Source: Cupriavidus necator | GTDB lineage: Bacteria > Pseudomonadota > Gammaproteobacteria > Burkholderiales > Burkholderiaceae | DNA: 32,000 nt | Reading direction: 5' to 3' | Assembly: GCF_016127575.1 (NCBI RefSeq) | Contig: NZ_CP066018.1 | Span: 2,640,001-2,672,000 of the forward strand | Shown: positions 1-32,000 of the stretch, piece after piece | Layout of the letters: every line of letters starts with the position of its first letter | How positions within the stretch are numbered: position 1 is the first letter of the stretch | Notes under the pieces: model-generated | The model's input: the letters and a program-made list of their open reading frames with translations, nothing else | Databases searched by the model: none | Told to the model about the DNA's origin: nothing | Translations under genes and position numbers: made by a program

Positions 1-450
1 CACCACCAGCATCTTGGCCATGTCGGCCAGCCACAGGCCGAACGTCATCTTGTTGAAGCCGAAGCGCTGCTCGATGCCGAACTGGCCGTACAGCGAGAAC
101 GGCAGGTCCACCAGCCCGCCGATCAGCGCCACGCTGGCCACCAGCGCCACGCCATAGGCATAGCCTGGGCCGAAAGTGTCCAGCCAGGACTGGTTGAGCC
201 ACTGCAGCCCGCCCAGCATGGTGAAGCCGATCAGCACCGCGGCCCCGGCCAGCACCTCGAGCATCGACAGCCGGGTGCGGGCGATGGTGTAGTCCGCGGC
301 CTTCTGGTGCGAGGCCAGGCTGATGGTGTCGGCAAAGCGCGGCGGCACCGCATTGCGGTGCTGCGCCACATGCCGGACCTGGCGGGCGGCCAGCCAGAGC
401 CTGGTCAGCACCATCAGCACCAGGGCGGCGAGAAAGACAATCGTGAACAT
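1..450 (-). CDS. M48-family (Ste24/HtpX-like) membrane metallopeptidase, N-terminal part only; the 3' end lies left of the window
   Basis: Not in the ORF track because it runs off the window edge. My translation of the minus strand from ATG 450..448 gives [81 protein letters not shown]...[27 protein letters not shown], open to position 1. It has an N-terminal TM helix and HQKAADY / EQRFGFNK segments that I recall from Peptidase_M48 N-terminal domains. The HExxH motif is outside the window. Confidence 0.5.
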
Positions 451-7725: not shown

Positions 7726-8823
7726 ATGCCGGCTGTCCCGAATCCGCCGAATACCCCCTTCCAGAAAAAAGCCCCGCAGACACCTCTCCCACCCCTGAAC
7801 CACCACAACGGCCATGCGGCCGCACCGCCCGCCCTGGTCGCGCTGGCCAATGGCCGCGCGCACCGGCAGCCGCCCCAGCCGGAGTTCGTGCAGCAGTACC
7901 GCGAGGACAGCGGCGCGCTGCGCGAGCAGGTGCTGGCCGGGCTGCGTGCCGGGCAGGCCGCCATCAGCCCCAAGTTCTTCTACGACGTGCTGGGCTCGCG
8001 CCTGTTCGAAGCCATCACCGACCTGCCAGAGTACTACCCGACCCGCACCGAGGCCGCGATCTTTGCCAGCGCGGCGCCCGCCATCGCCGCGCGTGCCGGC
8101 AGCGGCTGCGTGCTGGTGGACCTGGGTGCGGGCAATTGCGAAAAGGCTGCCAGGCTCTTTGGCACCCTGCGCCCGGCGCAGTACGTGGCGCTGGATATCT
8201 CCATAGAGTTCCTGCGCGCGACGCTGTCGTCGCTGCAGCAGCAGCATCCCGACATCCCGATGCTGGGCCTGGGCGCCGACCTGTGTGCGCCGTTCGATCT
8301 GCCCGCCAACGTCAGGCGCGGCAGGCGGCTGTTCTTCTATCCGGGCTCGAGCATCGGCAATTTCGCCCCGGTCGAGGCCCTGGCGTTGCTGCAGCGCATG
8401 CGCGGCGCGGCCGGGCGCGGCGACGGCGTGCTGATCGGGGTCGACCTGCACAAGGACGAAGCCACGCTGGTGTCTGCCTATGACGATGCGCTGGGCGTCA
8501 CCGCCGCGTTCAACCGCAACGTGCTGCGCAACGTGAACCGCATCGTCGGCACGGATTTCTCGCTGGACGACTGGCGCCATGTGGCGAGCTTCGACCGCGC
8601 GGCCTCGCGCATCCAGATGCACCTGCAGGCGTGCCGCGACGTGCGCGTGCAGTGGCAGGGCGGCGCGCGCGAGTTTGCCGCCGGCGAACGGATTCATACC
8701 GAGGACTCCTACAAGTACCGCCCGGAGGACTTCACGCTCTTGCTGGAAGCCGCCGGGTTTGACGACCCGGTGTACTGGACCGACCCGAGCGGCTGGTTCG
8801 CCGTGTTCCACGCGCGCGGCTGA
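7726..8823 (+). CDS. egtD: L-histidine N(alpha)-methyltransferase (EgtD-like, ergothioneine pathway)
   Basis: ISPKFFYDVLGSRLFEAITDLPEYYPTRTE, LVDLGAGNCEKA, YVALDIS, FFYPGSSIGNF, IHTEDSYKY match the EgtD family. AAGGAA sits 6 nt before ATG 7726. The N-terminal ~70 aa is a Pro-rich extension, so the true start is uncertain. Confidence 0.8.
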   Translation: MPAVPNPPNTPFQKKAPQTPLPPLNHHNGHAAAPPALVALANGRAHRQPPQPEFVQQYREDSGALREQVLAGLRAGQAAISPKFFYDVLGSRLFEAITDLPEYYPTRTEAAIFASAAPAIAARAGSGCVLVDLGAGNCEKAARLFGTLRPAQYVALDISIEFLRATLSSLQQQHPDIPMLGLGADLCAPFDLPANVRRGRRLFFYPGSSIGNFAPVEALALLQRMRGAAGRGDGVLIGVDLHKDEATLVSAYDDALGVTAAFNRNVLRNVNRIVGTDFSLDDWRHVASFDRAASRIQMHLQACRDVRVQWQGGAREFAAGERIHTEDSYKYRPEDFTLLLEAAGFDDPVYWTDPSGWFAVFHARG

Positions 8824-8967: not shown

Positions 8968-10224
8968 ATGAGCGGCTTTCCCATGCTTCCCGATCTCTAC
9001 TTCACCGGCGGCAAGGCGACCTGGTCCGACCCGCGCCGGCTGCCGCGCGAAGGGCTGGCGCAGGCGCTGGTCGATGCGCGCAACCGCACGCTGGCGTGGC
9101 TGGCACCGTTCGGGCAGACGCGCCGCGCCTGGGACGTGCCGCATCAGTACGATGCCGATCCGCCGTTGTGGACGCTCGGGCACGTGGCCTGGCATGCGGA
9201 GTGGTGGTGCCTGCGCGGCGTGCGCCAGGTGGACCGCGGCGGCGTGCCGGTGCCGGTGGCATCTGAGCCGTCGCTGCTGGACGGCGCCGACGAGTGGTTC
9301 GACCCGGACCGCATCGGCCCCGACGAGCGCTGGGAGGTCACGCTGCCCGACGTCGCGGTGGTCAAGCGCTACGCCGGCCACGTGCTCGACGGCGTGCTGC
9401 GCCGGATTGCGCTGCTGGCCGACGACAGCGACCTGACCCTGTACCCGTACCGCCGCGCGCTGCTGCATGAAGATGCCCAGGGCGAAGGCGTGGCCGCGCT
9501 GTTGCAGGCGCTGGGCATGGCTCCCGCGGAGGCCATCGGCGCCGGTCCGGTGCAGCCTGCGGGGCATGGCGGCACCCTGCATTTCCCGGGCGGTCGCTTC
9601 ACGCTCGGCTGGAGCGATCCCGACGGCTTTGCCTGGCCCGATGAGCTGCCGCCGCAGCCCACCTACGTGCCCGCGTTTGAAATGGACATGGCGCCGGTCA
9701 GCAACGCGCAGTTTCTCGAGTTCGTCGAGGACGGCGGCTACGAGCACCCGGCGTGGTGGTCGGCAGCGGGGCGCCAGTGGCTGATGACGCAGGAACGCTC
9801 GGCGCCGCGCTACTGGTCGCGCCATCCGGAATCGCGCGCCTGGATGGTGGAGCGCTTCGGAACGCGGCGCACGCTCAATCCGGATGAGGCGGTGCGCCAT
9901 GTCACGCTGTACGAGGCGCAAGCATGGTGCGTGTGGGCGGGGCGGCGCCTGCCGGCGGAATCGGAATGGGAGCTTGCCGCGACGCAGAACCGCGGCCTGC
10001 AGTGGGGGACGCTGCGTGAGTGGACTGCCACGCCCTATGAGCCGTACGCCGGGTTTGCCGCCGCGCCGTCAGACAGCGAGGTGGTGGGGCGCTTCGGCAC
10101 GCACCAGGCGGTGCGCGGTGTGTCGTTCGCCAGCCCCGCGCGGCTGCGCCATGTGCGGGCAAGGTGGGCGCGGTTGCCGGAGGACGACCTGTCCTTCATC
10201 GGCTTTCGCACCTGCGCGCCGTAG
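8968..10224 (+). CDS. egtB: EgtB-like sulfoxide synthase (DinB-like N-domain + FGE-sulfatase fold)
   Basis: N-terminal LWTLGHVAWHAEWW (DinB-type His motif). The C-terminal domain has FAWPDELPPQ, VSNAQFLEFVEDGGY, RHVTLYEAQAWCVWAGRRLPAESEWE, EWTATPYEPYAGF, VRGVSFAS, IGFRTC. It lies next to egtD. Confidence 0.75.
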   Translation: MSGFPMLPDLYFTGGKATWSDPRRLPREGLAQALVDARNRTLAWLAPFGQTRRAWDVPHQYDADPPLWTLGHVAWHAEWWCLRGVRQVDRGGVPVPVASEPSLLDGADEWFDPDRIGPDERWEVTLPDVAVVKRYAGHVLDGVLRRIALLADDSDLTLYPYRRALLHEDAQGEGVAALLQALGMAPAEAIGAGPVQPAGHGGTLHFPGGRFTLGWSDPDGFAWPDELPPQPTYVPAFEMDMAPVSNAQFLEFVEDGGYEHPAWWSAAGRQWLMTQERSAPRYWSRHPESRAWMVERFGTRRTLNPDEAVRHVTLYEAQAWCVWAGRRLPAESEWELAATQNRGLQWGTLREWTATPYEPYAGFAAAPSDSEVVGRFGTHQAVRGVSFASPARLRHVRARWARLPEDDLSFIGFRTCAP

Positions 10225-13042: not shown

Positions 13043-13285
13043 TCAGTCTTCTGCATCCTTGCCAGCGGCCTTGCGCGGCAGCCGCCCTAGCGGCTGCTCC
13101 TGCGGCATCACATGGCGGTTGCCCGGCAATCCGCCCGGGTAGTCGACGATGCGCGCGGTGTCCTGGCGCCGCAGGCCATGCCATGCCTGGCCGCCGGCGG
13201 TACGCCCGCCGCCCAGGATGGCGGTCATGGCCTGCCGGTCGAGATCCATGCTGTCGGGCAAATCCTTGATGACGATCACTGCCAT
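13043..13285 (-). CDS. GG-leader peptide precursor, divergent basic cargo (pepA4, my label)
   Basis: MAVIVIKDLPDSMDLDRQAMTAILGG|GRTAGGQAWHGLRRQDTARIVDYPGGLPGNRHVMPQEQPLGRLPRKAAGKDAED. The leader is in the same 26-aa register as its five paralogs (D8 L9, L15 D16, M20, I23, G25 G26). The same ccGGAGAc..ATG initiation region is used. Confidence 0.55.
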   Translation of the reverse strand: MAVIVIKDLPDSMDLDRQAMTAILGGGRTAGGQAWHGLRRQDTARIVDYPGGLPGNRHVMPQEQPLGRLPRKAAGKDAED

Positions 13286-13389
13286 GGCTGTCTCCGGTCA
13301 AGCGGCGCCACGGCCATGCGGCCGCGGGACCGCTTCAGTATAGGCGAGGCGGTCCGCGGTATTGCCCGCGGGGCCGCCGCGCGGTGCGC

Positions 13390-13662
13390 TCAGACTGCGG
13401 CGAAATTGCCGGCCCATTGCGACGGGTTGACGTTGACGCGCACCGGGCCGAAGTCGGGGCCGACGATGCTGTTGTTGAGCGTGTTGACGTTGATGCTCTG
13501 CAGCTGCGCGATGTTCTGGTTGACGTTGACGGTGACGTTGGCCAGCGGGCCGACGCTGCCGACACCGCGGCTGAGCCACGAGTTGCCGCCGCGTACGGCG
13601 CACAGCGAGGCACGGTCGAGTTCTTTGCTCAGGGCGAGATCGCGGACGAGGATCGATGACAT
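13390..13662 (-). CDS. GG-leader peptide precursor, divergent Asn/Val-repeat cargo (pepA3)
   Basis: MSSILVRDLALSKELDRASLCAVRGG|NSWLSRGVGSVGPLANVTVNVNQNIAQLQSINVNTLNNSIVGPDFGPVRVNVNPSQWAGNFAAV. Good RBS (aaaggagcaccaccATG). Leader in the family register. Confidence 0.7.
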   Translation of the reverse strand: MSSILVRDLALSKELDRASLCAVRGGNSWLSRGVGSVGPLANVTVNVNQNIAQLQSINVNTLNNSIVGPDFGPVRVNVNPSQWAGNFAAV

Positions 13663-13696
13663 GGTGGTGCTCCTTTGAGTCGGGTGCCGGGGGCGG

Positions 13697-13728
13697 CTGG
13701 CGCGGAGATTGCAGCATCTGCGCGCCAG
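13697..13728 (-). other. Strong intercistronic hairpin between pepA2 and pepA3 (13-bp stem, one mismatch, 6-nt loop; no U tract)
   Basis: Plus strand: ctggcgcggagat-tgcagc-atctgcgcgccag. Confidence 0.4.
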
Positions 13729-13744
13729 CAGTGGCCAGGGCGTA

Positions 13745-14014
13745 TCAGCCGAAGATGTTGTTGGTGGCGTTCTGGTTGGTGTGCACGTCGGACTTGACGT
13801 GGTCCAGGAAGGCCGAGCCGTTGCCGTTCAGGTTGGTCACGGTCTGCATCTGCGCGATGCTTTGCGTGGCGTTGATGCTGTTGTCCAGCGACAGCCTGAT
13901 CGGCGTGTAGACGGCGGCGAAGGGCAGGTAGGCCAGGCCGCCGCGCACGGCGTGCATGCGCTTGCTGTCGAGGGTTTCGGCGGCGGGCAGGTCCTTGATG
14001 GTCAGCGTGGTCAT
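13745..14014 (-). CDS. GG-leader peptide precursor (pepA2)
   Basis: MTTLTIKDLPAAETLDSKRMHAVRGG|LAYLPFAAVYTPIRLSLDNSINATQSIAQMQTVTNLNGNGSAFLDHVKSDVHTNQNATNNIFG. 89 aa; hydrophobic residues at -4, -7, -12 relative to the GG. Confidence 0.8.
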   Translation of the reverse strand: MTTLTIKDLPAAETLDSKRMHAVRGGLAYLPFAAVYTPIRLSLDNSINATQSIAQMQTVTNLNGNGSAFLDHVKSDVHTNQNATNNIFG

Positions 14015-14068
14015 GATGGTCTCCGGTATCGGTCAGTGCGTGGGTGTGGGTGGCTGGGGCGCGTGGGC

Positions 14069-14338
14069 TCAGCCGTAGATGTTGTTGCTGGCGTTCTGGT
14101 TGGTATCCACATGCGAACGGACATGGTCCAGGAAGGCCGAGCCGTTGCCGTTCATGTTGGTGACGGTCTGCATCTGGGCGATTTCCTGCACGGCCTTGAT
14201 GCTGCTGTCGAACGACAGCTTCACCGGGCTGTAGACCGCGGCGAACGGCATGTAGGCCAGGCCGCCGCGTACGGCGTGCATGCCCTTGCGGTCCAGGGTT
14301 TCGGTGGAGGACAGGTCCTTGATGGTCAGCGTGGTCAT
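14069..14338 (-). CDS. GG-leader peptide precursor (pepA1)
   Basis: MTTLTIKDLSSTETLDRKGMHAVRGG|LAYMPFAAVYSPVKLSFDSSIKAVQEIAQMQTVTNMNGNGSAFLDHVRSHVDTNQNASNNIYG. First gene behind the sigma54 promoter. SD-like GGAG lies 7 nt before the ATG. Confidence 0.8.
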   Translation of the reverse strand: MTTLTIKDLSSTETLDRKGMHAVRGGLAYMPFAAVYSPVKLSFDSSIKAVQEIAQMQTVTNMNGNGSAFLDHVRSHVDTNQNASNNIYG

Positions 14339-14417: not shown

Positions 14418-14433
14418 CGCAGGGACTGTGCCA
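14418..14433 (-). promoter_or_regulatory. Sigma54 (-24/-12) promoter of the pepA1-A4 operon
   Basis: The minus strand reads caTTGGCACAGTCCCTGCGTTag, i.e. TGGCAC-N5-CTGC with correct GG-N10-GC spacing. It is ~95 nt upstream of the pepA1 ATG and near-identical to the element at 19493-19508. Confidence 0.75.
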
Positions 14434-14483: not shown

Positions 14484-14665
14484 CGATTTATTTTCGATGT
14501 CGGCTTGCGGGCACTGGCTGCGGGCGCTGCCGCATGCTACGGGTGACGGGCCGCGGCCAACAGGCGGCGTGCCGGTGTTGGCGCGGCCGCGACAGTGGCG
14601 CGCCAAAGGCGATGCGATTGGCAGGGGGCGCCCGCGCGCGGCGTTGCACGCCGGCTTCGCATGGT

Positions 14666-14694
14666 TTGCGCATGCCTTGGGTGCGCACTAGTAT
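14666..14694 (+). promoter_or_regulatory. Candidate sigma70 promoter of the kinase gene (TTGCGC-17 nt-TAGTAT)
   Basis: tTTGCGCatgccttgggtgcgcacTAGTATcc, ~50 nt upstream of ATG 14747. Confidence 0.3.
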
Positions 14695-14746
14695 CCATCT
14701 CGAAGGCAGGCATATCCGCATCGTGGGATGCGCCGTGCCAGCAACC

Positions 14747-16798
14747 ATGTCGGGGCATCCGGTGGCCAGTCTCAAAGAACTGATCCGCAAGTTCCAGAAC
14801 GGCGGTCTCTCCGACGACGAGTTTGTTGCGTCGTTCGAAACGGCGCTGGCGCAGGATCCCACCACGCCCAGCCAGGCCGCGCGCGTGGTCATCGAGGAAA
14901 ACACGCGCTTCCCGTTCCCGCCCGCGGTCTATGCCGAAGTCATGCGGCGCATCGAGCGCCGCGGCGCCACGCAGTACGACGGCGCCACCGAGGCCACGCG
15001 CCTGGCCGGCACGCAGACGGGCTCGCTGTATGCGACCTCGCCCGAGCCGGGCACGCTGCCGCAGGCGGCGCATACCAAGGGCGTGGGCGATACGCTGAAC
15101 GGCCGCTTCGTGCTGGAAGAATGCCTGGGCGTGGGCGGCATGGGCACGGTCTACAAGGCGCTCGACCTGCGCAAGCTGGAAGCCTCGGACCGCAAGCCCT
15201 ATATCGCCATCAAGGTGCTGAACCTGCAGTTCAGCGGGCACCCCAAGTCGCTGATGGCGCTGCAGCGCGAGGCGCGCAAGGCGCAGACGCTGGCGCACCG
15301 GAATATCGTCACCGTCTATGACTTCGACCGCGACGGGCCGGTGGTCTTCCTGACCATGGAATACCTGTCAGGCTCTTCGCTCAACCATGTGCTCAAGGCC
15401 CCGGGCTTCACCGGCATGCCGATGGCGCGCGCCATGTCGATCATCAACGGCATGGGCAATGCGCTGGCATACGCGCACGAGCGCGGCTTCGTGCACTGCG
15501 ACTTCAAGCCCGCCAACGTCTTCCTGACCGCCAACGGCGAGGTCAAGGTGATCGACTTCGGCATCGCGCGCGGCTTCCTGCCGCCGGCCGACGAGTCCGA
15601 CCGGACCGTGTTCGATCCCGGCTCGCTGGGTGGCATGACGCCAGCCTACGCCAGCCCGGAGATGTTCGACCATTGCGAGCCCGACCCGCGCGACGACATC
15701 TTTGCGCTGGCCTGCGTGACCTATGAACTGCTGACCGGCAAGCATCCCTACCAGCGGCTCTCGGCCAACCAGGCGCGCGATGCCGGGCTCAAGCCGGCGC
15801 AGCCGCCGCAGTTGAGCCGCACGCAGTGGAAGACCCTGCGCGAGGCGCTGTCGCTCGACCGCGAGACACGCACGCCCACCGTCGCGCGCTTCCTGCATGG
15901 CATGAGCGCGGTGCCGGTGGTGTCCACGCGGCGCCCCTCGCCGCTGATGGCAGGCGGCGCGCTGGCCGTGCTGGCGGGCGTGTCGGCGATCGGCTACTAC
16001 GCCTGGCATTCGCAGCGCCAGGCCGAAGCACCGGCTGGCGATGCGCGCGTCGAGGCCCCGGCTACACCGGTGCCCGCAGCGCCGGTCATCCCGCCCGCAC
16101 CGGCTGCCCGCCCGGCGGTGCTGTCGATGGCCGACGTCACGAAGATGCTGGCCGCGGTGCCGTGCTCGCTGCTCACCGCCACCCAGCAGGCGCAGACGTT
16201 GCGTGTGCGTGGCTTCCTGGCCGAGAGCGTCGGCGCCGTGCGGCTGCGCGAGCAGCTCAGCGCGTTGCCGGGCGTCAAGGAGCTCAAGGGCGTGTCGATC
16301 GACACCCAGCCGCTGGCCGCCGACAAGTGCGACGTGGCCACCCTGATCGCGCCGTACTGGTCGGGCCACCGCGAAGGGGGCACGGCTTCGTCGCTGCGGC
16401 TGCGCGGCCAGGGCACGCAGCTGACCGAAGGGTCACCGCTGGTGCTGGATCTGCGCACGCCGGCGCGCGACTCCTATGTCTATGTCGATTACTTCGCGGC
16501 CGACGGCAAGGTGGCGCACATGGTGCCGAGCGCGCGCGTGCCCGCCCACCAGGCGCCGCCCAGCCATGGCGCCACGGTTGGCGACGGTGGCGACTGGATC
16601 ATCTCCGGGCCGTTCGGCACCGAGCTGGTGGTGTTGCTGACCACGCCCGCGCCGCTGTTCGATGGCCGGCGCGCCGAGGTCGAGCTGCACAAGGACTACC
16701 TGAAGGCACTGGAAAAGCCGCTGGCGCAGATGGCGCGCACCTATGGCCGGGACCGCATCAGCGCGGACCTGGTGCAGATCTCCACGCGCGCGCGCTGA
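14747..16798 (+). CDS. Transmembrane Hanks-type Ser/Thr protein kinase (non-RD) with a periplasmic DUF4384-like C-terminal domain
   Basis: Track ORF 14534..16798 trimmed to ATG 14747 (MSGHPVASLKELIRKF...); GTG 14723 is an alternative. GVGGMGTVYKA, IAIKVL, HCDFKPANVF (HRD->HCD), VIDFGIA, TPAYASPE. TM segment LMAGGALAVLAGVSAIGYYAW. C-terminal SYVYVDYFAADGKVAHMVPS...ELVVLLT resembles DUF4384. Confidence 0.9.
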   Translation: MSGHPVASLKELIRKFQNGGLSDDEFVASFETALAQDPTTPSQAARVVIEENTRFPFPPAVYAEVMRRIERRGATQYDGATEATRLAGTQTGSLYATSPEPGTLPQAAHTKGVGDTLNGRFVLEECLGVGGMGTVYKALDLRKLEASDRKPYIAIKVLNLQFSGHPKSLMALQREARKAQTLAHRNIVTVYDFDRDGPVVFLTMEYLSGSSLNHVLKAPGFTGMPMARAMSIINGMGNALAYAHERGFVHCDFKPANVFLTANGEVKVIDFGIARGFLPPADESDRTVFDPGSLGGMTPAYASPEMFDHCEPDPRDDIFALACVTYELLTGKHPYQRLSANQARDAGLKPAQPPQLSRTQWKTLREALSLDRETRTPTVARFLHGMSAVPVVSTRRPSPLMAGGALAVLAGVSAIGYYAWHSQRQAEAPAGDARVEAPATPVPAAPVIPPAPAARPAVLSMADVTKMLAAVPCSLLTATQQAQTLRVRGFLAESVGAVRLREQLSALPGVKELKGVSIDTQPLAADKCDVATLIAPYWSGHREGGTASSLRLRGQGTQLTEGSPLVLDLRTPARDSYVYVDYFAADGKVAHMVPSARVPAHQAPPSHGATVGDGGDWIISGPFGTELVVLLTTPAPLFDGRRAEVELHKDYLKALEKPLAQMARTYGRDRISADLVQISTRAR

Positions 16799-16843: not shown

Positions 16844-18067
16844 CTACTTCATGTCGCGCGCCACGCGAAAGCCGTTCTGCGACTGCCGCACGCTGGGGCT
16901 GTACTTGAAGCGCGTGGACGACACCATGTAGTTCGCCCCCTCGCGCCAGGAGCCGCCGCGGATCACGCGTGCGCCGCAGGCGTTCTCGTTCCATACGCGC
17001 CCGTCGGCGGGCGCGCCCTTGTATGAGCTGTGCCAGCAATCGGCCACCCATTCCCACACGCTGCCGTTGACGTCGTGCAGGCCGTACGGGTTGGCCGCGA
17101 ATGTCCCGACCGCGGCCGGCGCATCCTGGCTCCATGGGTCGCCGCAGTCCTTGCAGTTGGCATTGCCCTTGCGCATCTGGTCGCCCCACCAGTAGGCACT
17201 GGCGGTGCCGCCGCGCGCTGCGTATTCCCATTCGGCCTCGGTGGGCAGCCGGTAGGACTTGCCGGTGGTCTTGCTGAGCCAGGCCACGTACTGCTGCGCG
17301 TCGTCCCAGCTGACGTCGCGCACCGGCGCGTTCTTCGCGCTGTCGGCGACGGTGGGGACGCGCTGGCAGCCGCCGGCGTCGGCGCAGGCATTCCATTGCT
17401 CGACCGTGACCTCATAGCGGCCGATGGCAAACGGCTGGCCGATGGTGACGTGGTGCGGGGGCTTCTCGGCGGGATCGCTGGCACTGCTGCCCATGGTGAA
17501 GCTGCCCGCCGGCAGGGGGACCAGCACCGGGCAGGCCGGGCAATCGCGGATCTCGCCGGTGCGCAATGTGGCGCTGACCGCGCCGCCCGCCGCCGCGCCC
17601 GGGCGCAGCGATGCCGTTGCCGGTGGCGCAGCAGGTGGCGCAGCAGGTGACGCAGCGGGCGGCGATGCCGGACGCGCTGCCGCGGCCGGTGCCGGCGGCC
17701 GCGTGACCTGGCCCCCGGCAGAGGTGCCGGAGCGGGGCGGCGGTGCGGGCGCCTGGGCCTTGGGTGCGGAGGCGGACGCCGCCAGCCGCTCCAGGCGCGC
17801 CCTGGCCAGCACCGCGAAGCGTCCGTTGGGGTACTGCTTCAGGTAGGCCTCGTAGTCGCCGGCATAATTGCTGTTCTTGATCGATTCCCAGAAGCTCAGC
17901 TCGTACTGCTCCTCGGTGTTCTTGGGCATGATGCCGGCGAGCAGCAGCGGTTCCGTGGCCGCGGGGCCGGCGGCAGCGGCGGCCGCCTGCGCGGGCAGCG
18001 GCGCGGCGGCGAGCATGGCGGCCATGGCGGCCGTGCGTACGACTGGTAGATTGCGCCACATCTTCAC
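16844..18067 (-). CDS. Secreted FGE-sulfatase-fold (SUMF1/EgtB/PvdO family) protein with an N-terminal helical module and a Pro/Ala linker
   Basis: Signal peptide [58 protein letters not shown] module. FGE domain: [76 protein letters not shown]. Confidence 0.85.
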
Positions 18068-18355: not shown

Positions 18356-18781
18356 ATGTCCAGACGATTCCTGTTCCGCCTGCTGGCGGTTGCCGCCCTC
18401 GCCGCGGCCCCGTCGCTGTCGCTGTCGACGGCAGCCCCGCCCAATGCCGAGGCCTACATCATCTGGCCGCACGATGGCACGGTCATCAGCGGCGGCAAGT
18501 TCTGGGTGCGCATGGGCCTGCGCAATATGGGCGTGTGCCCCAAGGGCGTCGAGTCGCCGCGCTGCGGGCACCACCACCTGCTGGTCGACACCGAGCTGCC
18601 GCCGCTGGACAAGGAAATCCCTTCGGACAAGAACCACCTGCACTTCGGCGCGGGCGAGACCGACGCGCGCATTGAGTTGCCGCCCGGCAAGCACACGCTG
18701 CAATTGCTGATGGGCGATGCCAAGCACGTGCCGTTCGAGCCGCCGATCTATTCGAAGAAGATCACGATCACGGTGAAATAG
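18356..18781 (+). CDS. Secreted DUF4399-family protein (copy 1)
   Basis: Track ORF trimmed to ATG 18356 (RBS gggagg). Signal peptide MSRRFLFRLLAVAALAAAPSLSLSTA. GHHHLLVD, HLHFGAGETD, LPPGKHTLQLLMGD motifs. Confidence 0.75.
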   Translation: MSRRFLFRLLAVAALAAAPSLSLSTAAPPNAEAYIIWPHDGTVISGGKFWVRMGLRNMGVCPKGVESPRCGHHHLLVDTELPPLDKEIPSDKNHLHFGAGETDARIELPPGKHTLQLLMGDAKHVPFEPPIYSKKITITVK

Positions 18782-18840: not shown

Positions 18841-19269
18841 ATGTCCAGACTACTTGCCGCGGCTGTCTTTGCCGCCAGCCTGCTGCTGTCAGCGGTGGTG
18901 CAGGGTGGTTCGACGCCGGCGCCGCCCAACGCCTACCTGTATATCGGCTGGCCCAACGACGGGCAGACGATGCCCGCGGGCAAGCCATTCAAGGTCTGGT
19001 TCGGGTTGCGCAATATGGGGGTGGCGCCAAAGGACGTGAAGTATCCCAATACTGGGCACCATCACCTGCTTGTCGATGTGGACCTGCCGCCGATGGACAA
19101 GGAGATCCCCAATGACCGCAATCACCTGCATTTCGGGGCGGGGGAGACCGAGACCATGATCGAGCTGCCGCCCGGCAAGCATACGCTGCAGCTGCTGATG
19201 GGGGATGACAAGCACATTCCCACCAACCCGCCGGTTTATTCGAAGAGGATCACGATCTACGTGAAGTGA
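18841..19269 (+). CDS. Secreted DUF4399-family protein (copy 2, tandem paralog)
   Basis: Track ORF trimmed to ATG 18841 (RBS gggagag). Signal peptide MSRLLAAAVFAASLLLSAVVQG. Same GHHHLLVD / HLHFGAGETE / LPPGKHTLQLLMGD motifs; roughly two thirds identical to copy 1 by eye. Confidence 0.75.
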   Translation: MSRLLAAAVFAASLLLSAVVQGGSTPAPPNAYLYIGWPNDGQTMPAGKPFKVWFGLRNMGVAPKDVKYPNTGHHHLLVDVDLPPMDKEIPNDRNHLHFGAGETETMIELPPGKHTLQLLMGDDKHIPTNPPVYSKRITIYVK

Positions 19270-21956: not shown

Positions 21957-21984
21957 TTGACTAGCCTTTGCCGTCGCCTACTAT
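21957..21984 (+). promoter_or_regulatory. Candidate sigma70 promoter (TTGACT-16 nt-TACTAT) of the FHA-HlyD-PPIase-ABC-EBP operon
   Basis: gaTTGACTagcctttgccgtcgccTACTATgttc, ~65 nt upstream of ATG 22049. Confidence 0.4.
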
Positions 21985-22048
21985 GTTCTTAGTCGCTTCA
22001 TCCCCTGGCCTGCCGCCGCGGCAGCCGCGCTGTTGGCTTGCTGGAAAC

Positions 22049-24658
22049 ATGGCTCCTGACGAAGCACTGATCATGGAAATGCCGGTGAAAATGGCCCAGG
22101 GATTCACGCGGGAATTCTCTCAGGATCTGGCGCAGGAATTCGATGTGTTCCTGACGCCCGTGTCGCGCCCGGAGCTGGGCGAGATCCGCATCGACGAAGA
22201 CCTGTTCGCCGTCGGACGCAGCGAACTGCCGTTCGCCGCCTACCCCGAAGACCTGGCCGCACCGCTGTCGCGCCGGCATGCGCGCATCTTCGCCGAGCAT
22301 GGCGCGGTCTATGTGGCGGATCTCGGCAGCAAGAACGGCACGCGCGTGAACGGCGCGGCGGTGGCGCGCCAGCCGGCGCAGCTCAGCGATGGCGATGAGG
22401 TGGCCTTCGGGCCGGCGCTGTCGTTCCGGGTCCGGCTGTCGCCGCGCGCGGCGCAGCCCGAGCCGCCGCGGGTAGCGGTGACGTTGGTGCCCGAGCGCGG
22501 CGATGTCGGGCTGCAGCCGCTGCACGTGGACGGCTTCCCCTACCTGATCAGCAAGGCCGACGACGCCTTCGCGCGCTACCGCGACAGCTATCCGCAGCAG
22601 GTCAACTACCTGTCGCGGCGCCACGCGCACGTGTACCTCAAGGGTGGCGTGCCATTCGTTGAGGACCTGGGCAGCACCAACGGCACCTTCGTCAACGGCA
22701 AGCGCCTGGCCGACCACGGCGTGCCGCTGGACGACGGCGACCTGATCGCCTTTGGCGGCAACCACTTTGTCTACAAGGTGCAGGTCCAGCACACCGGCGA
22801 CGGCGATGCCACCGCGACGCATTCGATGCTGCAGCCAGTCGCTGCGCCCGACACGCCGCCCGCATCCCAGGCTTCGCCCGTGCGCGACGAGGATGACCGC
22901 ACTACCTTTGTCGGTGCCGCCGATTCCTTCCTCGACATCTTCTGCGTCGACTATGCCGCGCAGCAGGACGACGAGGTCAACGCCGAGGCCGAGGCACAGG
23001 CCGCGGCGGCCACGGCCGCGCACGACGGCGCGCAGGCACGCCGCAAGCGCGGGCGTGCCGCGCTGCTGCTGGCCGAAGGTGCCAGGCAGTTCGGCCTGAA
23101 CGATTCCGTACGCACGCGGCGCGCGGCGCGATGGGGCGGCGCGTTGCTGTTGCTCGCGCTGCTGGCGGGGGCGGCCGTGTACTGGCGCGGTGCGCCGGAG
23201 CGCGAAGTGCAGGCGCTGTTTGCCGCAGGCGATCACGCGCGCGCGGCGCAGGCCGCCGACAACTACCTGGCGCGTCATCCCGGCGATGCCCAGGTGCAGG
23301 CCATCGGCACCGAGGCACTGATGCGTGCCGACGTGCCCGCTTTCGCCGCCAGGCTGAAGGCCGGTGATTTCAGCGGCGCCGATGCCGTGCTGGCCCGGAT
23401 GCGCAAGCTCAGCGCGCACAATGCCGATGCGCGGCCGCTGGTGGCGGAACTCGACTGGATCGGCCGGCTCGAACGCTTCACCGCGCAGCGCGGCGCCGAC
23501 ACGCCGATCCGCCTCTACACCGACGAGGCGCCGATCCGGCAACTGCTGGCGTACTGGAACCAGGACACCACCGCGCACCAGCGCGCGCTCGGGCGCATCG
23601 CGGCCGATGTGCCGGCGTTCCGCGATCTCTACGCCGATGCGCTCAGCGACGTGCGTCGCCTGCAGAACGACGCCTCGGTCTACCTGGCGGCGATCGACCG
23701 GCTGAACACCACCATTGCCGCCGAACTCGGCCGCGACCGCCCGGAGGCATTGCAGCCCGTCATCGCCGAGTACCGCGAGAAGTATCCGCGCCTGGCCGGG
23801 CTGGACCGCGTGCAGTCAGACCTGGACCGCTACACCGCGCTGATGCAGGCACTGCGCGCGCGCCGGCCCGGGCCGCTGGTGGCGCGCCTTGCCGACAGCC
23901 GCTTCGCCACGCCGCCGTTCCAGGCGCAGTTCAACCAACTGGCCGCGCGCCTGCCGCCGCCGGAGATGGTGCGCCAGTATGCCGGTGCGGCCAGGGCGTG
24001 GCAGCAGGGCGACAGCGCCGCAGCGCTCGCGGGGATCAAGCAGATCAGCGGCGGCCCCTGGGCCGAGGACCTGGCGCGCGACCTGTCGCACAAGCAGAAG
24101 GTGGCGGCGCAGTACGCCGAGCTGCAGTCCGCGCGCGGCAGCAAGGGCTATGAGGACCGGCTGCTGGGCTTCTACGCCATGCTCGATGCCGCCGATGACG
24201 GCCACTTCGCCAAGGCGGTCGAGGCCGACGTCAACGGCGTGCGCGACAGTGCCCTGCGGCGCGCGCGGGAACTGATGGGCAGCGCCGTCGCCGCATGGAA
24301 GCAATACCGCAGCAATGGCGTGATCGGCAGCGAGCAGCGGCTCGAGCCCGGCATCTCGCCCAGGTTCCGCGCGCAGGCCCGGTTGCTGTCGCAGGCACAG
24401 GATGACGCGCGCCAGGGCATGCGCATCTTCACGCAACTGCGCGCGGGCGAAAGCGCCGACCTGGCGCAACTCGCCAAGATCGAGGAAGAGATCCGCGCCG
24501 AGGCCGACCAGCAGCGGCACGCGCTGCGCGAGTTGCGCACCGTGCTCGATCCCGCCGTGCTCAAGACCAAGCTGGAGCTGATCGGCGGTGAAGACACCGG
24601 CAAGGCGCCGGAGCCGGCCGCGGCTGCCGCGGCGCCACAGCAAGCGGGGCAGCCATGA
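22049..24658 (+). CDS. Membrane-anchored double-FHA-domain protein with a large helical (TPR-like) periplasmic region
   Basis: Start ambiguous (ATG 22049, 22073, 22079 or 22091; 22091 has ggtga upstream). FHA1: VGRSELPF...LSRRHARIF...DLGSKNGTRVNG. FHA2: LISKADDAF...LSRRHAHVY...DLGSTNGTFVNG (G-R replaced by S-K). TM segment WGGALLLLALLAGAAVYW. The stop overlaps the HlyD ATG (ATGA, 24655-24658). Confidence 0.8.
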   Translation: MAPDEALIMEMPVKMAQGFTREFSQDLAQEFDVFLTPVSRPELGEIRIDEDLFAVGRSELPFAAYPEDLAAPLSRRHARIFAEHGAVYVADLGSKNGTRVNGAAVARQPAQLSDGDEVAFGPALSFRVRLSPRAAQPEPPRVAVTLVPERGDVGLQPLHVDGFPYLISKADDAFARYRDSYPQQVNYLSRRHAHVYLKGGVPFVEDLGSTNGTFVNGKRLADHGVPLDDGDLIAFGGNHFVYKVQVQHTGDGDATATHSMLQPVAAPDTPPASQASPVRDEDDRTTFVGAADSFLDIFCVDYAAQQDDEVNAEAEAQAAAATAAHDGAQARRKRGRAALLLAEGARQFGLNDSVRTRRAARWGGALLLLALLAGAAVYWRGAPEREVQALFAAGDHARAAQAADNYLARHPGDAQVQAIGTEALMRADVPAFAARLKAGDFSGADAVLARMRKLSAHNADARPLVAELDWIGRLERFTAQRGADTPIRLYTDEAPIRQLLAYWNQDTTAHQRALGRIAADVPAFRDLYADALSDVRRLQNDASVYLAAIDRLNTTIAAELGRDRPEALQPVIAEYREKYPRLAGLDRVQSDLDRYTALMQALRARRPGPLVARLADSRFATPPFQAQFNQLAARLPPPEMVRQYAGAARAWQQGDSAAALAGIKQISGGPWAEDLARDLSHKQKVAAQYAELQSARGSKGYEDRLLGFYAMLDAADDGHFAKAVEADVNGVRDSALRRARELMGSAVAAWKQYRSNGVIGSEQRLEPGISPRFRAQARLLSQAQDDARQGMRIFTQLRAGESADLAQLAKIEEEIRAEADQQRHALRELRTVLDPAVLKTKLELIGGEDTGKAPEPAAAAAAPQQAGQP

Positions 24659-29800: not shown

Positions 29801-29958
29801 CGGTCATCATCGCGCACCGGCTCAGCACCATCATGCAGGCCGATAAGATCCTGGTGCTGTATGAAGGCGCCATCGTCGAGCAGGGCCGGCATGAGGAGCT
29901 GATCGAGCGCAAGGGCATGTATTTCCAACTGGTGCAGAAGCAACTGAGCGCAGCATGA
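26848..29958 (+). CDS. Peptidase-containing ABC transporter (PCAT): 2 x cNMP-binding-like domains + C39 Cys-peptidase + 6-TM ABC domain + NBD
   Basis: 1036 aa. CNB-like 1 is about aa 30-140 and CNB-like 2 about aa 160-285. C39 domain: EEMDC(334)GAACLAMICRHYG, HWEGYHYVVVYG, WVADP (Cys/His/Asp present). NBD: GRSGSGKTT, LSGGQIQRLCIARAL, LLVFDEATSALD, IIAHRLS. Confidence 0.92.
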   Translation: MSSKPASASGEPAAPPAPDQPEAGSALAAFLATVEILSVLVPEELARLAEAAQVLTFGFGDTVCNAGEAAPGLFIVKSGSVRVFNEEHGKEISMGVRKAGEVFADIALLRDYRHESSVRASGKTELLLIPRSVGEPVVAGNPAALAFITSYVAISSAGGFVARLFDLRGKLDKQELEDAVRSVGVKRVAAGKEILKQDGREDRRLYVVRQGTVRIVRSEEGSEYPLATLGQGDIFGERACVMRQEQLASAIADTDVRLLVIPEKTVQLILERNPRLREVLEERIRVLDRELHRQKKLAERRKRPVLLDLHSKPELGEKLIRRFALVEQAEEMDCGAACLAMICRHYGIPMTLGKLRELANVTTQGATLDSLARAGEALGFTTRGVQCTRDSLMGFELPFIVHWEGYHYVVVYGISSRWVWVADPAIGFRKMSAEEFERGWSGTCLLFTPGESMTQLSVSRSPWLRFIGYLAPYKRILAHLFLATFVIQMLGVVPPLIIQNILDGVVVHQNVGLLNLLIAGLIISNVFSQLMSTIRAYLANFMVRNMDFAMMSHFFKHTLSLPLSFFAKRKTGDIFARFQENQTIRAFLTESTVTTALNLLMVFIYFTIMFLYNVKLTLLLIAFVIPIAALTVVVTPKVKTYAREVFAASTDAKAYLMETLGGAETVKGMGIERPVRLRWERKYAKALDAQYRAQAFHILVGLVSQLLNAATTIAVLWVGATLVLERELTIGQLIAFNAFMGSVLAPLMGLVALWGQLNDAGVAMERLGDVLDLEPEQKPQDVLSRVMLPDLQGEIVMKDLYFRYGGEDTPYVLENISFAIRPGEMVAIVGRSGSGKTTLAKLLVGFYKPTEGSMTVDGYDLNVIDAAFYRAQVGYVMQSNLLFSGTIAENIACGDDSPDRRRIEEVARMADAHAFISKLPLGYEQVVGERGIGLSGGQIQRLCIARALYHDPRLLVFDEATSALDTQSESNILANMQEILRGRTAVIIAHRLSTIMQADKILVLYEGAIVEQGRHEELIERKGMYFQLVQKQLSAA

Positions 29959-31271
29959 AGCTATACAACCAGGGAGCCACCCCCGCCTCGGTCACGTCCC
30001 CGGTGTCGTTCGCCGGGCTGATCGAGAAGATCGAGATCCTGCGTTCCACGCTGCGCTGGTCGTCGCGGCTTGACCGGCCGGAGATCGAGAAGCTGCTCAA
30101 GCAGGTCACCACGCTGCGCGACGAGGTGATGGGGCTGTCGCACAAGGAGCGCTTCGTGCAGGCCGCGTCGGCCGAGGCGGCCCCGCCGCAGGAAGAAGTC
30201 GAGCGCATGCCGCGCGCGCGCCGGCAGGCACTGGTTGAGCGCAGCTTTATTTTCGAAGGGACCTTCGGCGACAACCCCAAGTTGCTGGAGGCACTGGAGA
30301 TTGCCGAGAAGGCGGCGCCGACCGACCTGCCGGTGCTGATCGATGGAGAGAGCGGCACCGGCAAGGAGCTGATGGCCAAGGTGATCCATGCCAATGGCTC
30401 ACGCACCGACAAGCCGTTTATCTCGGTCAACTGCGGCGCCATCCCCGACAGCCTGCTTGAATCCGAGCTGTTCGGCCACAAGAAGGGCGCCTTCACCGGC
30501 GCCAGCAATGACCGCCGCGGCAAGTTCGAGAGCGCGCATACCGGCACCATCTTCCTGGACGAGATCGGCGAGCTGCCGCTGACCGGGCAGGTCAAGCTGC
30601 TGCGCGTGCTGGAGGCGCACGAGATCCAGCGCGTGGGCTCGGACGAGGCGATCTCGGTCGATACGCGCATCGTCGCGGCGACCAACAAGGACCTGCGCCG
30701 CATGAGCCAGGCCGGCACCTTCCGCGAAGACCTGTTCTATCGCCTGAGCGTGATCCACGTCAGCCTGCCGTCGCTGCGCGAGCGGCGCGACGAGATCCCG
30801 CTGCTGGTGTCGTACTTCAGTGACGAGGCCGCCGGCATGCTCAAGCGCCGGCCACTCAAGCTGACGCCGCGGCTGCGCGACTTCCTGCTGCACTACGACT
30901 ACCCGGGCAATATCCGCGAACTGCGCAACCTGATGTACCGGCTGAGCTGCCTGGCCGGCGACACCGCCGACCTGGCCCAACTGCCGCAGGACATCCGCCC
31001 CAGGCCCGCCGCACTGGCGGTGGTGGGCAATGGCCCCGCCGCTGCCGACATTGCCATGGCGACGTCCCTCAGCGAAGCCAAGCGCGCCGCCAGCGACGAG
31101 GCCGAGCGGGCCTTCCTCGAACGGGGCTTGCAGGAGGTCGGCGGCACCGTCGCCGAACTGGCGCGGCGCTTCGACATGAACCGCTCGCACCTGCAGATGC
31201 TGCTGAAGAAGCACGGCATCCACTCGAAGGATTTCCGCGCCAACCGGCAGGCCGAAGGCGGCAAGGGGTAG
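29955..31271 (+). CDS. Sigma54-dependent enhancer-binding protein (bEBP) with a non-receiver ~115-aa N-terminal region and a Fis-type HTH
   Basis: GESGTGKELMAKVIH (Walker A), ESELFGHKKGAFTGA (GAFTGA loop), FLDEIGELP, RVGS, RIVAATN, FREDLFYRL, C-terminal GGTVAELARRFDMNRSHLQMLLKKHGI. The ATG overlaps the ABC stop (ATGA, 29955-29958). Confidence 0.9.
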   Translation: MKLYNQGATPASVTSPVSFAGLIEKIEILRSTLRWSSRLDRPEIEKLLKQVTTLRDEVMGLSHKERFVQAASAEAAPPQEEVERMPRARRQALVERSFIFEGTFGDNPKLLEALEIAEKAAPTDLPVLIDGESGTGKELMAKVIHANGSRTDKPFISVNCGAIPDSLLESELFGHKKGAFTGASNDRRGKFESAHTGTIFLDEIGELPLTGQVKLLRVLEAHEIQRVGSDEAISVDTRIVAATNKDLRRMSQAGTFREDLFYRLSVIHVSLPSLRERRDEIPLLVSYFSDEAAGMLKRRPLKLTPRLRDFLLHYDYPGNIRELRNLMYRLSCLAGDTADLAQLPQDIRPRPAALAVVGNGPAAADIAMATSLSEAKRAASDEAERAFLERGLQEVGGTVAELARRFDMNRSHLQMLLKKHGIHSKDFRANRQAEGGKG

Positions 31272-31299: not shown

Positions 31300-32000
31300 T
31301 CAGGCGTCCAGCTCGGGATTGACCAGGGTCTTGTCAGAGCCGTACGGGTCCGCCGCACGCAGCACCACCACCGACACGTTGTCGCGGCCGCCGGCATCGA
31401 GCGCCATCTGCACCAGCGTCGGCGCGGCCTGCGCAACGTCCTGCTGCGCCAGCACCGCCGCGATGTCGTCATCGTCGACCTCGTTGCTCAGGCCATCGCT
31501 GCACAGCAGGTACACGTCGCCATCGGCGACCTCGGTCAGCAGCTGCTCCGGCGCCAGCGTCGGGGCCGCGCCGACGGCGCGTGTGATGGTGTTCTGCGCG
31601 GGATGGTGGCGCGCTTCTTCCGGGGTGATCAGCCCGCGCGCCAGCAGGCGCTCGACCTGGTTGTGGTCGCGCGTGAGGCGCGCGAACTGGCCGCCGCGCA
31701 GCCGGTACAGGCGGCTGTCGCCGGCCCACACGCAGGCGCAACGGCGATCGCCCGCCAGCATTACCACCACCGTGCTGCCGATGCAGCGCACGCCCAGGCG
31801 CGCCGCTTCATCGACCAGCGCCAGGTTCACGCCCTGCAGCGCCGCGCGCGTGGCGTCGACCCGGTCTTCCAGCCGGGGCTGCGGCGGCAGCGTGGCCAGC
31901 GCCTGGACCACCGCCTGGCTGGCGAAGTCTCCCACGGCATGGCCGCCCATGCCGTCGGCCACTGCCCACAGGTCCTGGCTGGGCAGATCCAGGCAAGCGT
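31300..32000 (-). CDS. PP2C-family Ser/Thr protein phosphatase (5' end beyond the right edge of the window)
   Basis: The track ORF starts at M 31962, but the frame stays open to 32000 (..ACLDLPSQDLWAVADGMGGHAVGDFAS). The ADGMGGH motif is internal in PP2C enzymes. LLCSDGLSNEV and GGRDNVSVVVL are the C-terminal PP2C motifs. Confidence 0.85.
   Translation of the reverse strand, partial: ACLDLPSQDLWAVADGMGGHAVGDFASQAVVQALATLPPQPRLEDRVDATRAALQGVNLALVDEAARLGVRCIGSTVVVMLAGDRRCACVWAGDSRLYRLRGGQFARLTRDHNQVERLLARGLITPEEARHHPAQNTITRAVGAAPTLAPEQLLTEVADGDVYLLCSDGLSNEVDDDDIAAVLAQQDVAQAAPTLVQMALDAGGRDNVSVVVLRAADPYGSDKTLVNPELDA

Follow-up and report, generated by a model that had tools for sequence, protein, structure and literature searches.

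What is a membrane-spanning Ser/Thr kinase doing at the edge of a peptide export locus? The question is raised by a 32,000-nucleotide stretch of high-GC DNA from the Cupriavidus necator group (contig NZ_CP066018.1, positions 2,640,001 to 2,672,000; here called the window), in which a kinase gene diverges from four genes for peptides with double-glycine leaders. Beyond the kinase lie genes for a periplasmic protein related to formylglycine-generating enzymes (FGE), for two DUF4399 proteins, for an export apparatus, for a sigma-54 activator (an enhancer-binding protein [EBP]), and for a PP2C phosphatase. As judged by similarity and gene order, the genes for the kinase, the PP2C, and the FGE-like and DUF4399 proteins have their homologues in a block next to TssM and TagF in a type VI secretion system (T6SS) cluster. 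Because this block is common to a T6SS locus and the peptide island, and because the island's FHA reader is encoded beside HlyD, we lean, with moderate confidence, towards the explanation that a threonine-phosphorylation switch of the T6SS kind, following the logic of PpkA, TagR, Fha, and PppA, has been rewired onto a double-glycine peptide exporter of cNMP-C39-ABC, HlyD, and OEP components. A literature search for the island or the kinase found no paper.

An intact membrane kinase in a conserved island

The kinase open reading frame spans positions 14534 to 16798 of the forward strand, and translation from the ATG at 14747 gives 683 residues, a length and N terminus that agree with annotated Cupriavidus orthologues (83 to 97% identity, 100% coverage). 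Full-length orthologues at 50 to 97% identity are present in many genera, which, together with the conserved synteny described below, excludes the locus as a chance product. The catalytic domain scored 134.3 bits against PF00069, for which the cutoff is 31.7 (E = 6.8e-39). Reading its catalytic residues, we regard the product as an intact, single-pass membrane kinase of the Hanks type that is probably active.

A preliminary description of this DNA had proposed a transmembrane (TM) segment followed by an extracytoplasmic part of roughly 260 residues, and this topology held. The main hydrophobic peak of the protein is the predicted TM helix (Table 1), which leaves 263 residues outside the cytoplasm; one further 19-residue window, at residue 458, also exceeded the cutoff and falls within the confidently folded periplasmic module. 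AlphaFold2 (AF2) modeling from 50 orthologues returned, in order, an N-terminal domain, a disordered linker, the kinase domain, the TM helix, a disordered Pro/Ala linker, and the periplasmic module. A PDB fold search with this full-length model retrieved kinase domains only. The N-terminal four-helix domain is confined to island-type orthologues and had no match in Pfam or the PDB. Within the Thr-rich linker that follows it, T84 and T116 are invariant in the 50 orthologues and are candidate phospho-acceptor or FHA-docking sites; T287 and T298 are also predicted phosphosites. These 50 sequences were drawn from Cupriavidus, Pandoraea, Paraburkholderia, Caballeronia, Trinickia, Massilia, Undibacterium, Azoarcus, Rhodoferax, and other genera.

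We found the island in Burkholderiales and Rhodocyclales. In Cupriavidus, Paraburkholderia, Massilia, Undibacterium, Azoarcus, and others, its order is peptide genes (reverse strand), kinase (forward), FGE-like gene (reverse), two DUF4399 genes, OEP, a double-FHA gene, HlyD, a peptidyl-prolyl isomerase (PPIase), the ABC exporter, the EBP, and PP2C (reverse). Synteny was assessed by tblastn of the island proteins on 82 fetched loci, 43 of which hold a full-length kinase orthologue. Most of the 43 share the same gene order; in Massilia it is circularly permuted, and in Trinickia, Caballeronia, and some Paraburkholderia the island is split. Those loci that extend far enough include an orthologous PP2C gene. 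A divergent double-glycine peptide gene begins 256 to 733 bp upstream of the kinase in 37 of the 43, most of the exceptions being cut contigs. The FGE-like gene adjoins the kinase in most loci; where it does not, it was located elsewhere in the genome in all five cases checked. Similarly, all four Caballeronia genomes checked in which the kinase is isolated carry the double-FHA gene at another site, and the one also checked for the FGE-like gene has it.

The same association was seen among 301 genomes sampled evenly from the order. Kinase tails of orthologue grade were present in four of these genomes, three of which also had the double-FHA gene, compared to none of the 297 others; because the genomes are related to each other, these counts are descriptive only. 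In the fourth tail-bearing genome, PP2C, peptide genes, and kinase lie on a contig that ends directly after the kinase. Gene order and co-occurrence thus make the kinase a constant member of this conserved island.

Three loci deserve separate mention. A contig labelled "Actinomycetota bacterium MAG" (a metagenome-assembled genome [MAG]; locus L030, JBLNBI010000179.1) has a typical segment of the island, in which a peptide gene, kinase, FGE-like gene, and DUF4399 pair are all present. This kinase nests in the betaproteobacterial clade, and the contig is probably mis-binned. In Undibacterium and Azoarcus (loci L001 and L003), an extra FHA-GAF-HD(-GYP-like) protein is encoded between the DUF4399 pair and OEP, in the place occupied in Cupriavidus by the pepB peptide genes.

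Kinship with a type VI secretion locus

The nearest kinase outside the island clade comes from the alphaproteobacterium Pelagibius (locus L057), with a catalytic-domain identity of 58% and an identity of 33% across the complete periplasmic module. Its gene stands in the order TssM(IcmF)-TagF-PP2C-kinase-glycosyltransferase-(caspase-SH3-FGE)-DUF4399-DUF4399, and no double-glycine peptide or exporter gene was found within 10 kb. A maximum-likelihood tree of 82 catalytic domains, midpoint-rooted, grouped the 43 island kinases as one clade (support 100/100) with the Pelagibius kinase as its sister (100/99). The TssM-TagF-PP2C-kinase arrangement recurs in three other members of the wider non-RD clade (see below), and three members of the kinase clade carry a fused FGE-sulfatase ectodomain.

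These relationships recall the PpkA/PppA/Fha1/TagR system of the Pseudomonas aeruginosa H1-T6SS, and the likeness is one of architecture and context rather than of direct sequence comparison. In both, the Hanks kinase is bitopic and its periplasmic domain is folded, a dedicated PP2C and an FHA reader go with it, and a secreted FGE-like accessory is encoded nearby. The output, as proposed for the island, is also a secretion machine in both; the gathering of membrane Hanks kinase, PP2C, and FHA protein in a single cluster is that of the T6SS threonine-phosphorylation pathway. They differ in the machine, which is a C39-ABC/HlyD/OEP peptide exporter here and a T6SS there; no Tss family came up in Pfam and NCBIfam scans of the window genes between 3587 and 31271. 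The island's reader, unlike T6SS Fha, sits in the membrane, carries two FHA domains, and has a large part in the periplasm. The kinase also has an additional N-terminal four-helix domain, and its ectodomain is BON-like plus DUF4384, whereas that of PpkA is von Willebrand A-like. In T6SS, assembly is gated by PpkA, Fha, and PppA (PMC12607579), and TagR, a periplasmic member of the FGE-sulfatase superfamily that is required for H1-T6SS activation, has been modeled as binding PpkA's periplasmic domains and drawing them together (PMC13713981).

The catalytic loop marks a non-RD clade

The preliminary description had read the catalytic loop as HCDFKPAN instead of HRD, and alignment bore this out. 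Against Mycobacterium tuberculosis PknB, phmmer set "vhcdfkpanv" opposite "ihrdvkpani," so that C251 occupies the position of the arginine by which RD kinases are defined. C251 was invariant in the 50 full-length orthologues, as were the Gly loop GVGGMG (residues 128 to 133), K156 (the lysine of the IAIKVL motif that had been singled out earlier), E175, D252, K254, N257, the D270-F-G motif (270 to 272), and S303-P-E305. Non-RD kinases usually escape activation-loop control.

The substitution is not peculiar to the island. Gammaproteobacterial relatives, at 42 to 58% catalytic-domain identity, read HSD, HCD, HAD, or HLD, with HRD only in locus L089. Of kinases with the same periplasmic module, 19 read HRD in the loop, 12 HSD, 9 HCD, 3 HAD, 2 HYD, 1 HFD, and 1 HLD. 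On these comparisons, the non-RD state is a trait of a proteobacterial clade (HSD/HCD/HAD), some members of which occupy the place of PpkA in T6SS clusters. With a bacterial non-RD clade defined and its genetic context clear, switching without activation-loop priming becomes testable, for which C. necator H16 and Paraburkholderia offer convenient laboratory hosts.

The architecture itself, a proteobacterial Ser/Thr kinase joined to DUF4384, is already catalogued in an atlas preprint, whose "Proteo1" family has C-terminal TM only, FGE-sulfatase, or DUF4384 architectures (bioRxiv 10.1101/2025.01.12.632604). The clade sampled here shows all three, matched by description and not by the authors' constraint-based models. 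The preprint text as searched reports no function, genomic context, or non-RD character for "Proteo1" (bioRxiv 10.1101/2025.01.12.632604). New here are the extent of the non-RD state across the clade, a probable T6SS ancestry for the kinase/PP2C/FGE/DUF4399 block, and the link to pepA4 described below.

In a Steroidobacter MAG (locus L054, 5725-11803), an HCD kinase without the BON/DUF4384 tail diverges from a set of OEP, double-FHA, HlyD, and ABC genes, indicating that in this gammaproteobacterium a kinase with another ectodomain is likewise linked to an exporter.

A periplasmic BON-like and DUF4384-like module

The periplasmic part of the kinase had been likened to DUF4384 on the basis of short segments (YVYVDYF at residues 577 to 583 and VVLLT at 628 to 632), with a profile search of the C-terminal domain proposed as a check. 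This search gave a near-threshold match. PF14326 aligned over positions 4 to 80 of its 81, scoring 23.5 bits (E = 6e-5) with the whole protein and 25.2 bits with the tail alone, a little short of the gathering score of 27. In precomputed Pfam annotation PF14326 is assigned to many orthologues, and 51 of 54 more distant tail homologues match it at E < 1e-3, the best at 5e-13; both groups have members that exceed the gathering score.

An AF2 model of the tail alone, built from 35 sequences from the fetched loci, was confident (pLDDT 91.9, pTM 0.88) and resolved the module into an alpha-beta-beta-alpha-beta(-alpha) subdomain, the DUF4384 beta-sandwich, and, at the C terminus, a long helix and a strand. 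Every aligned homologue, the distant ones included, keeps the cysteines C473 and C528, which may form a periplasmic disulfide. A PDB fold search with the ectodomain model returned only generic immunoglobulin-like or macroglobulin-type sandwiches, at TM-scores of 0.5 or less, and thus no solved structure close to the module.

An exhaustive HMMER search with the 229-residue module yielded 1345 cluster representatives at E < 1e-3 over its whole length, and in nearly all of them the module is C-terminal. Its commonest non-kinase N-terminal partner is DotU/TssL (12 of 54 scanned); PP2C, FecR, cyclase, and papain-like proteins are others. In the DotU-fused homologues, BON or YscD-BON-like Pfam matches coincide with the first subdomain of the module. 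The definition of this BON-like plus DUF4384 module and its presence on TssL are also new. A phylum-wide sample of 400 genomes contained the tail in just one further genome, so the module is rare and context statistics are thin; a second, word-based homologue search with the tail alone added almost no diversity.

A proposed rewired secretion switch and its alternatives

Threonine-phosphorylation switches with a periplasmic FGE-like helper have so far been known as regulators of type VI secretion. If such a switch has been transferred to the peptide exporter, the kinase would be the writer, the PP2C the eraser, and the double-FHA protein, coupled to HlyD, the reader, with the FGE-like and DUF4399 proteins acting on the periplasmic side. 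A periplasmic cue, either the state of the envelope or an exported peptide, would be received by the ectodomain, probably together with the FGE-like partner, and would promote clustering or dimerization of the kinase; with the HRD arginine gone, phosphorylation of the activation loop would not be needed. The kinase would then phosphorylate threonines on itself, for which T84 and T116 are candidates, or on exporter components. Binding of the FHA protein to these marks would license assembly or opening of the exporter, and the PP2C would reset the system. The analysis itself shows homology, synteny, co-occurrence, and an intact set of catalytic residues; the direction of signaling, the substrates, the roles of the FGE-like and DUF4399 proteins, and activation without loop priming are what we infer from this arrangement.

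Were this correct, envelope-coupled posttranslational gating would be a portable module common to unrelated secretion machines, and the BON plus DUF4384 ectodomain, found on TssL as well, would become a tractable candidate for a sensing or anchoring element. There is precedent for some of its parts. In M. tuberculosis, Rv1747 is an ABC exporter with two FHA domains that bind phosphothreonines made by the kinase PknF. The readout of an exporter through two FHA domains would be common to both systems; there the FHA domains are fused to the ABC protein, whereas here they belong to a separate, HlyD-coupled membrane protein, and PknF is of the RD type and lacks this ectodomain. PknS of Xanthomonas citri is, like the island kinase, a bitopic Gram-negative kinase with an N-terminal extension (conserved, 83 residues) and a periplasmic domain, the latter needed for signaling, and it controls a secretion system (PMC13147305). 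It differs in having a canonical catalytic-loop motif and periplasmic tetratricopeptide repeats in place of the non-RD loop and BON-like/DUF4384 ectodomain, and it exerts transcription control by phosphorylating an extracytoplasmic function (ECF) sigma factor (PMC13147305).

Several points weigh against a switch of this origin. The T6SS link consists of one sister locus and scattered clade members, and the loci were gathered by a motif-biased search (patterns NIV[TA]VYDF and HCD[FL]KP[AG]N). We infer the binding of FHA domains to kinase-made marks from co-occurrence only, and the N-lobe of the kinase was poorly modeled by AF2. PvdO, the best PDB match of the FGE-like protein, is reported as an enzyme-like maturation factor, and the FGE-like protein could accordingly act on a small molecule. 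Finally, the peptide genes are the most constant neighbor of the kinase, which fits peptide sensing at least as well.

This last point leads to the alternative that survives best, one we regard as possible though unlikely: that the kinase is the receptor of a peptide pheromone. Its ectodomain would bind an exported double-glycine peptide, most plausibly of the pepA4 type, and the kinase would drive sigma-54 transcription of the peptide operons. Such a circuit would not be incompatible with a T6SS-style switch, and in it a non-RD Hanks kinase, FHA readers, and a sigma-54 activator would replace a two-component system in Gram-negative autoinduction. The divergent peptide gene at 37 of 43 kinase loci agrees with this idea, as do the sigma-54-like elements ahead of the peptide genes and the conservation of the pepA4-type family in at least 23 loci. 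A new observation comes from four Caballeronia genomes in which the kinase has moved away from the island and exactly one pepA4-type gene, the sole island gene still there, is kept beside it; the retention of this one short Arg-rich double-glycine peptide gene is what keeps peptide sensing alive. The arrangement also resembles class II bacteriocin autoinduction, in which a short cationic double-glycine peptide gene adjoins that of a membrane sensor kinase and a C39-ABC exporter is used, although the sensor there is a histidine kinase and the island has no response regulator and a sigma-54 activator without a receiver domain.

Against a dedicated peptide receptor, the Pelagibius sister kinase, with the same ectodomain and FGE and DUF4399 neighbors, lies in a T6SS cluster without such a peptide within 10 kb, and the module also ends TssL/DotU, PP2C, FecR, and cyclase proteins. 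The EBP has no FHA, receiver, or other recognizable phospho-input domain, so that no direct path is visible from the kinase to sigma-54 transcription, and divergent adjacency may reflect no more than a shared control region. The preliminary description had held that the position of the kinase would suit a sensor of the secreted peptides or of envelope state. The tie of the kinase to the peptide island stands, and both inputs can still be entertained; given the sister kinase in a T6SS cluster free of peptides and exporter, the ectodomain on TssL/DotU, and the activation of PpkA by TagR, we favor an envelope or partner-protein input.

We consider it improbable that the protein is a general envelope-stress or housekeeping kinase whose position beside the island is incidental and whose substrates lie elsewhere in the cell. 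Its separation from the exporter genes in Caballeronia, its seemingly own promoter of constitutive type, and the generic nature of the ectodomain module would all suit such a role. The tail and the double-FHA gene are nonetheless both rare and found together (tails in 4 of 301 genomes, the double-FHA gene in 3 of those 4), and synteny is conserved across families. Even the unlinked Caballeronia kinases argue for the island, since all four genomes checked keep the double-FHA gene and a kinase-adjacent peptide, and the one also examined for it keeps the FGE-like gene.

A role in peptide tailoring is a little less probable still. In this case the kinase would phosphorylate Ser and Thr residues of the precursors before export, as in class III/IV lanthipeptide synthetases, an idea consistent with the Ser/Thr/Asn-rich peptide cores, the constant adjacency to peptide genes, and partial NCBIfam matches to LanL (E = 5e-23) and LanKC (E = 2e-14). 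These matches fall far under their cutoffs (81 bits versus 650 for LanL and 53 versus 575 for LanKC) and reflect generic kinase likeness, PknB-type models scoring much better. Pfam and NCBIfam scans found no lyase or cyclase domain in the island; the TM helix, conserved periplasmic module, PP2C, and FHA readers are hallmarks of signaling rather than of tailoring, and the Pelagibius sister kinase is encoded without nearby peptides.

Least credible is a noncatalytic, pseudokinase-like scaffold that would only nucleate exporter assembly, for although Acidovorax PpkA has scaffold and condensate functions besides catalysis (PMC12607579) and the HRD arginine is lost here, K156, E175, D252, K254, N257, and the DFG motif are invariant in the 50 orthologues and a dedicated PP2C implies real phosphorylation.

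The divergent control region

The pepA1 start codon at 14338 (reverse strand) and the kinase start are separated by 408 bp, in keeping with the earlier account of a control region of some 400 bp shared with a sigma-54-driven peptide operon, and a sigma-54-type element lies within this spacer (Table 1). Matching of the pattern does not by itself exceed chance in the window; the element is supported by where it lies and by its conservation at other loci. A strict sigma-54 regular expression missed most of the orthologous promoters, and inspection by eye with a looser pattern recovered them in five of six spacers.

Ahead of the kinase itself, a pattern scan found no sigma-54 element, and a consensus promoter scan found no sigma-70 site. 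Cross-species comparison brought out a conserved element below the threshold of that scanner: TTGCGA-17-TAGTAT is kept 54 to 215 bp upstream of the kinase start in 28 of the 43 loci (pattern TTGNNN-16..18-TANTAT) across Burkholderiaceae (Cupriavidus, Paraburkholderia, Caballeronia, and Trinickia), and the pattern was not found in the Oxalobacteraceae or Azoarcus loci. The kinase thus probably has its own sigma-70-type promoter, the peptides probably being sigma-54 dependent. The enhancer sites that serve the divergent sigma-54 promoter must lie in the same region as this promoter-like element.

Other genes of the island

The island's peptides have cores rich in Ser, Thr, and Asn. The pepA4 type is recognized by the leader MAxIxIKDLxDSxELDRQAMxAIVGG and a short Arg-rich core with R(I/V)V(D/E/N)(Y/F)P; further examples are at 9324-9545 (-) in locus L028 and 9399-9614 (-) in L001.

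The FGE-like protein, encoded convergently with the kinase, found its best PDB match in PvdO (5hha, E = 5e-46). Genuine FGEs have a catalytic cysteine pair in the segment after RGGSW. By eye, this segment contains no cysteine in the island protein, which favors a binding or non-FGE role, and by analogy we regard the protein as a candidate TagR-like co-sensor. Metal binding is suggested for the two DUF4399 proteins by the His-rich motifs GHHHLLVD and NHLHFGAGET, present in both.

Two more peptide genes lie between the DUF4399 pair and OEP. From 20098 onward the genes encode OEP, the FHA protein, HlyD, PPIase, the cNMP-C39-ABC exporter, and the EBP. The double-FHA and HlyD genes overlap by 4 nucleotides, and the former encodes a large periplasmic part. 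Its first FHA domain has the canonical GR, SRRH (SxxH), and NGT residues, and its second has SK instead of GR and may not bind phosphothreonine in the usual way. The double-FHA protein is likely the reader of the kinase's phosphothreonine marks, and the island PP2C is likely their eraser. The roughly 95 N-terminal residues of the EBP look helical and had no match in Pfam or the PDB, including no receiver, FHA, or GAF domain; an FHA-EBP as direct kinase target was dropped as a candidate, since this N terminus is without a Pfam or PDB match.

Table 1. Coordinates of the kinase gene, its domains, and the associated island features within the window
Feature	Position	Strand	Evidence
Ser/Thr kinase gene, 683 aa + stop	14747..16798	+	Translation; Pkinase E = 6.8e-39; full-length orthologues
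N-terminal four-helix domain, residues 9-75	14771..14971	+	AF2 helices 9-17, 23-36, 41-54, 59-75; pLDDT about 86-93
Disordered Thr-rich linker, residues 76-120	14972..15106	+	pLDDT below 50
Hanks-type catalytic domain, residues 123-373	15113..15865	+	Pfam PF00069; best PDB fold/sequence matches PknB, PknA
Catalytic loop HCDFKPAN, residues 250-257, non-RD	15494..15517	+	Motif position; phmmer alignment
TM helix LMAGGALAVLAGVSAIGYYAW, residues 400-420	15944..16006	+	Hydropathy scan, motif position; AF2 helix 405-422
Periplasmic module, residues 459-683	16121..16795	+	AF2; module homologues
DUF4384 beta-sandwich, residues 561-635	16427..16651	+	Near-threshold PF14326 match; AF2 beta-sandwich
Promoter-like element TTGCGC-17-TAGTAT, 82 to 54 bp upstream of kinase ATG	14665..14693	+	Cross-species comparison
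Sigma-54-type -24/-12 element TGGCAC-N5-CTGCG of peptide operon	14418..14433	-	Pattern match, position, conservation
Four double-glycine-leader peptide genes pepA1-4, divergent from kinase	13043..14338	-	Double-glycine leaders
pepA4, Arg-rich type with RIVDYP	13043..13285	-	Comparison across loci
FGE-sulfatase/PvdO-like periplasmic protein, convergent with kinase	16844..18067	-	FGE-sulfatase E = 2.5e-58; signal-peptide-like N terminus
DUF4399 protein a, signal peptide, GHHHLLVD	18356..18781	+	PF14347 E = 5.8e-38
DUF4399 protein b, signal peptide, His-rich motif	18841..19269	+	PF14347 E = 1.6e-35
Double-FHA membrane protein	21968..24658	+	FHA E = 1.2e-28, two stretches
Sigma-54 activator (EBP)	29955..31271	+	About 95 N-terminal residues, then AAA+
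PP2C phosphatase, extends beyond window to about 32076	31300..32000	-	PF13672 match G000:C1:2671462-2672016 (-)

Other observations in the genome and window

The whole genome gave four Pkinase and two PP2C matches, and one Pkinase/PP2C pair is that of the island. The other pair (G000:C1:469491-471034; locus L096, 9491-11382) consists of a 363-residue cytosolic non-RD kinase with an HLD loop followed by a PP2C, with no T6SS or island genes nearby. For these reasons we rejected it as a relevant paralogue.

The window contains a second FGE-fold gene. An EgtD-like histidine methyltransferase (7726-8823, +) is followed by an EgtB-like protein of DinB_2 and FGE-sulfatase domains (8968-10224, +), and the two are a probable ergothioneine biosynthesis pair unrelated to the island.

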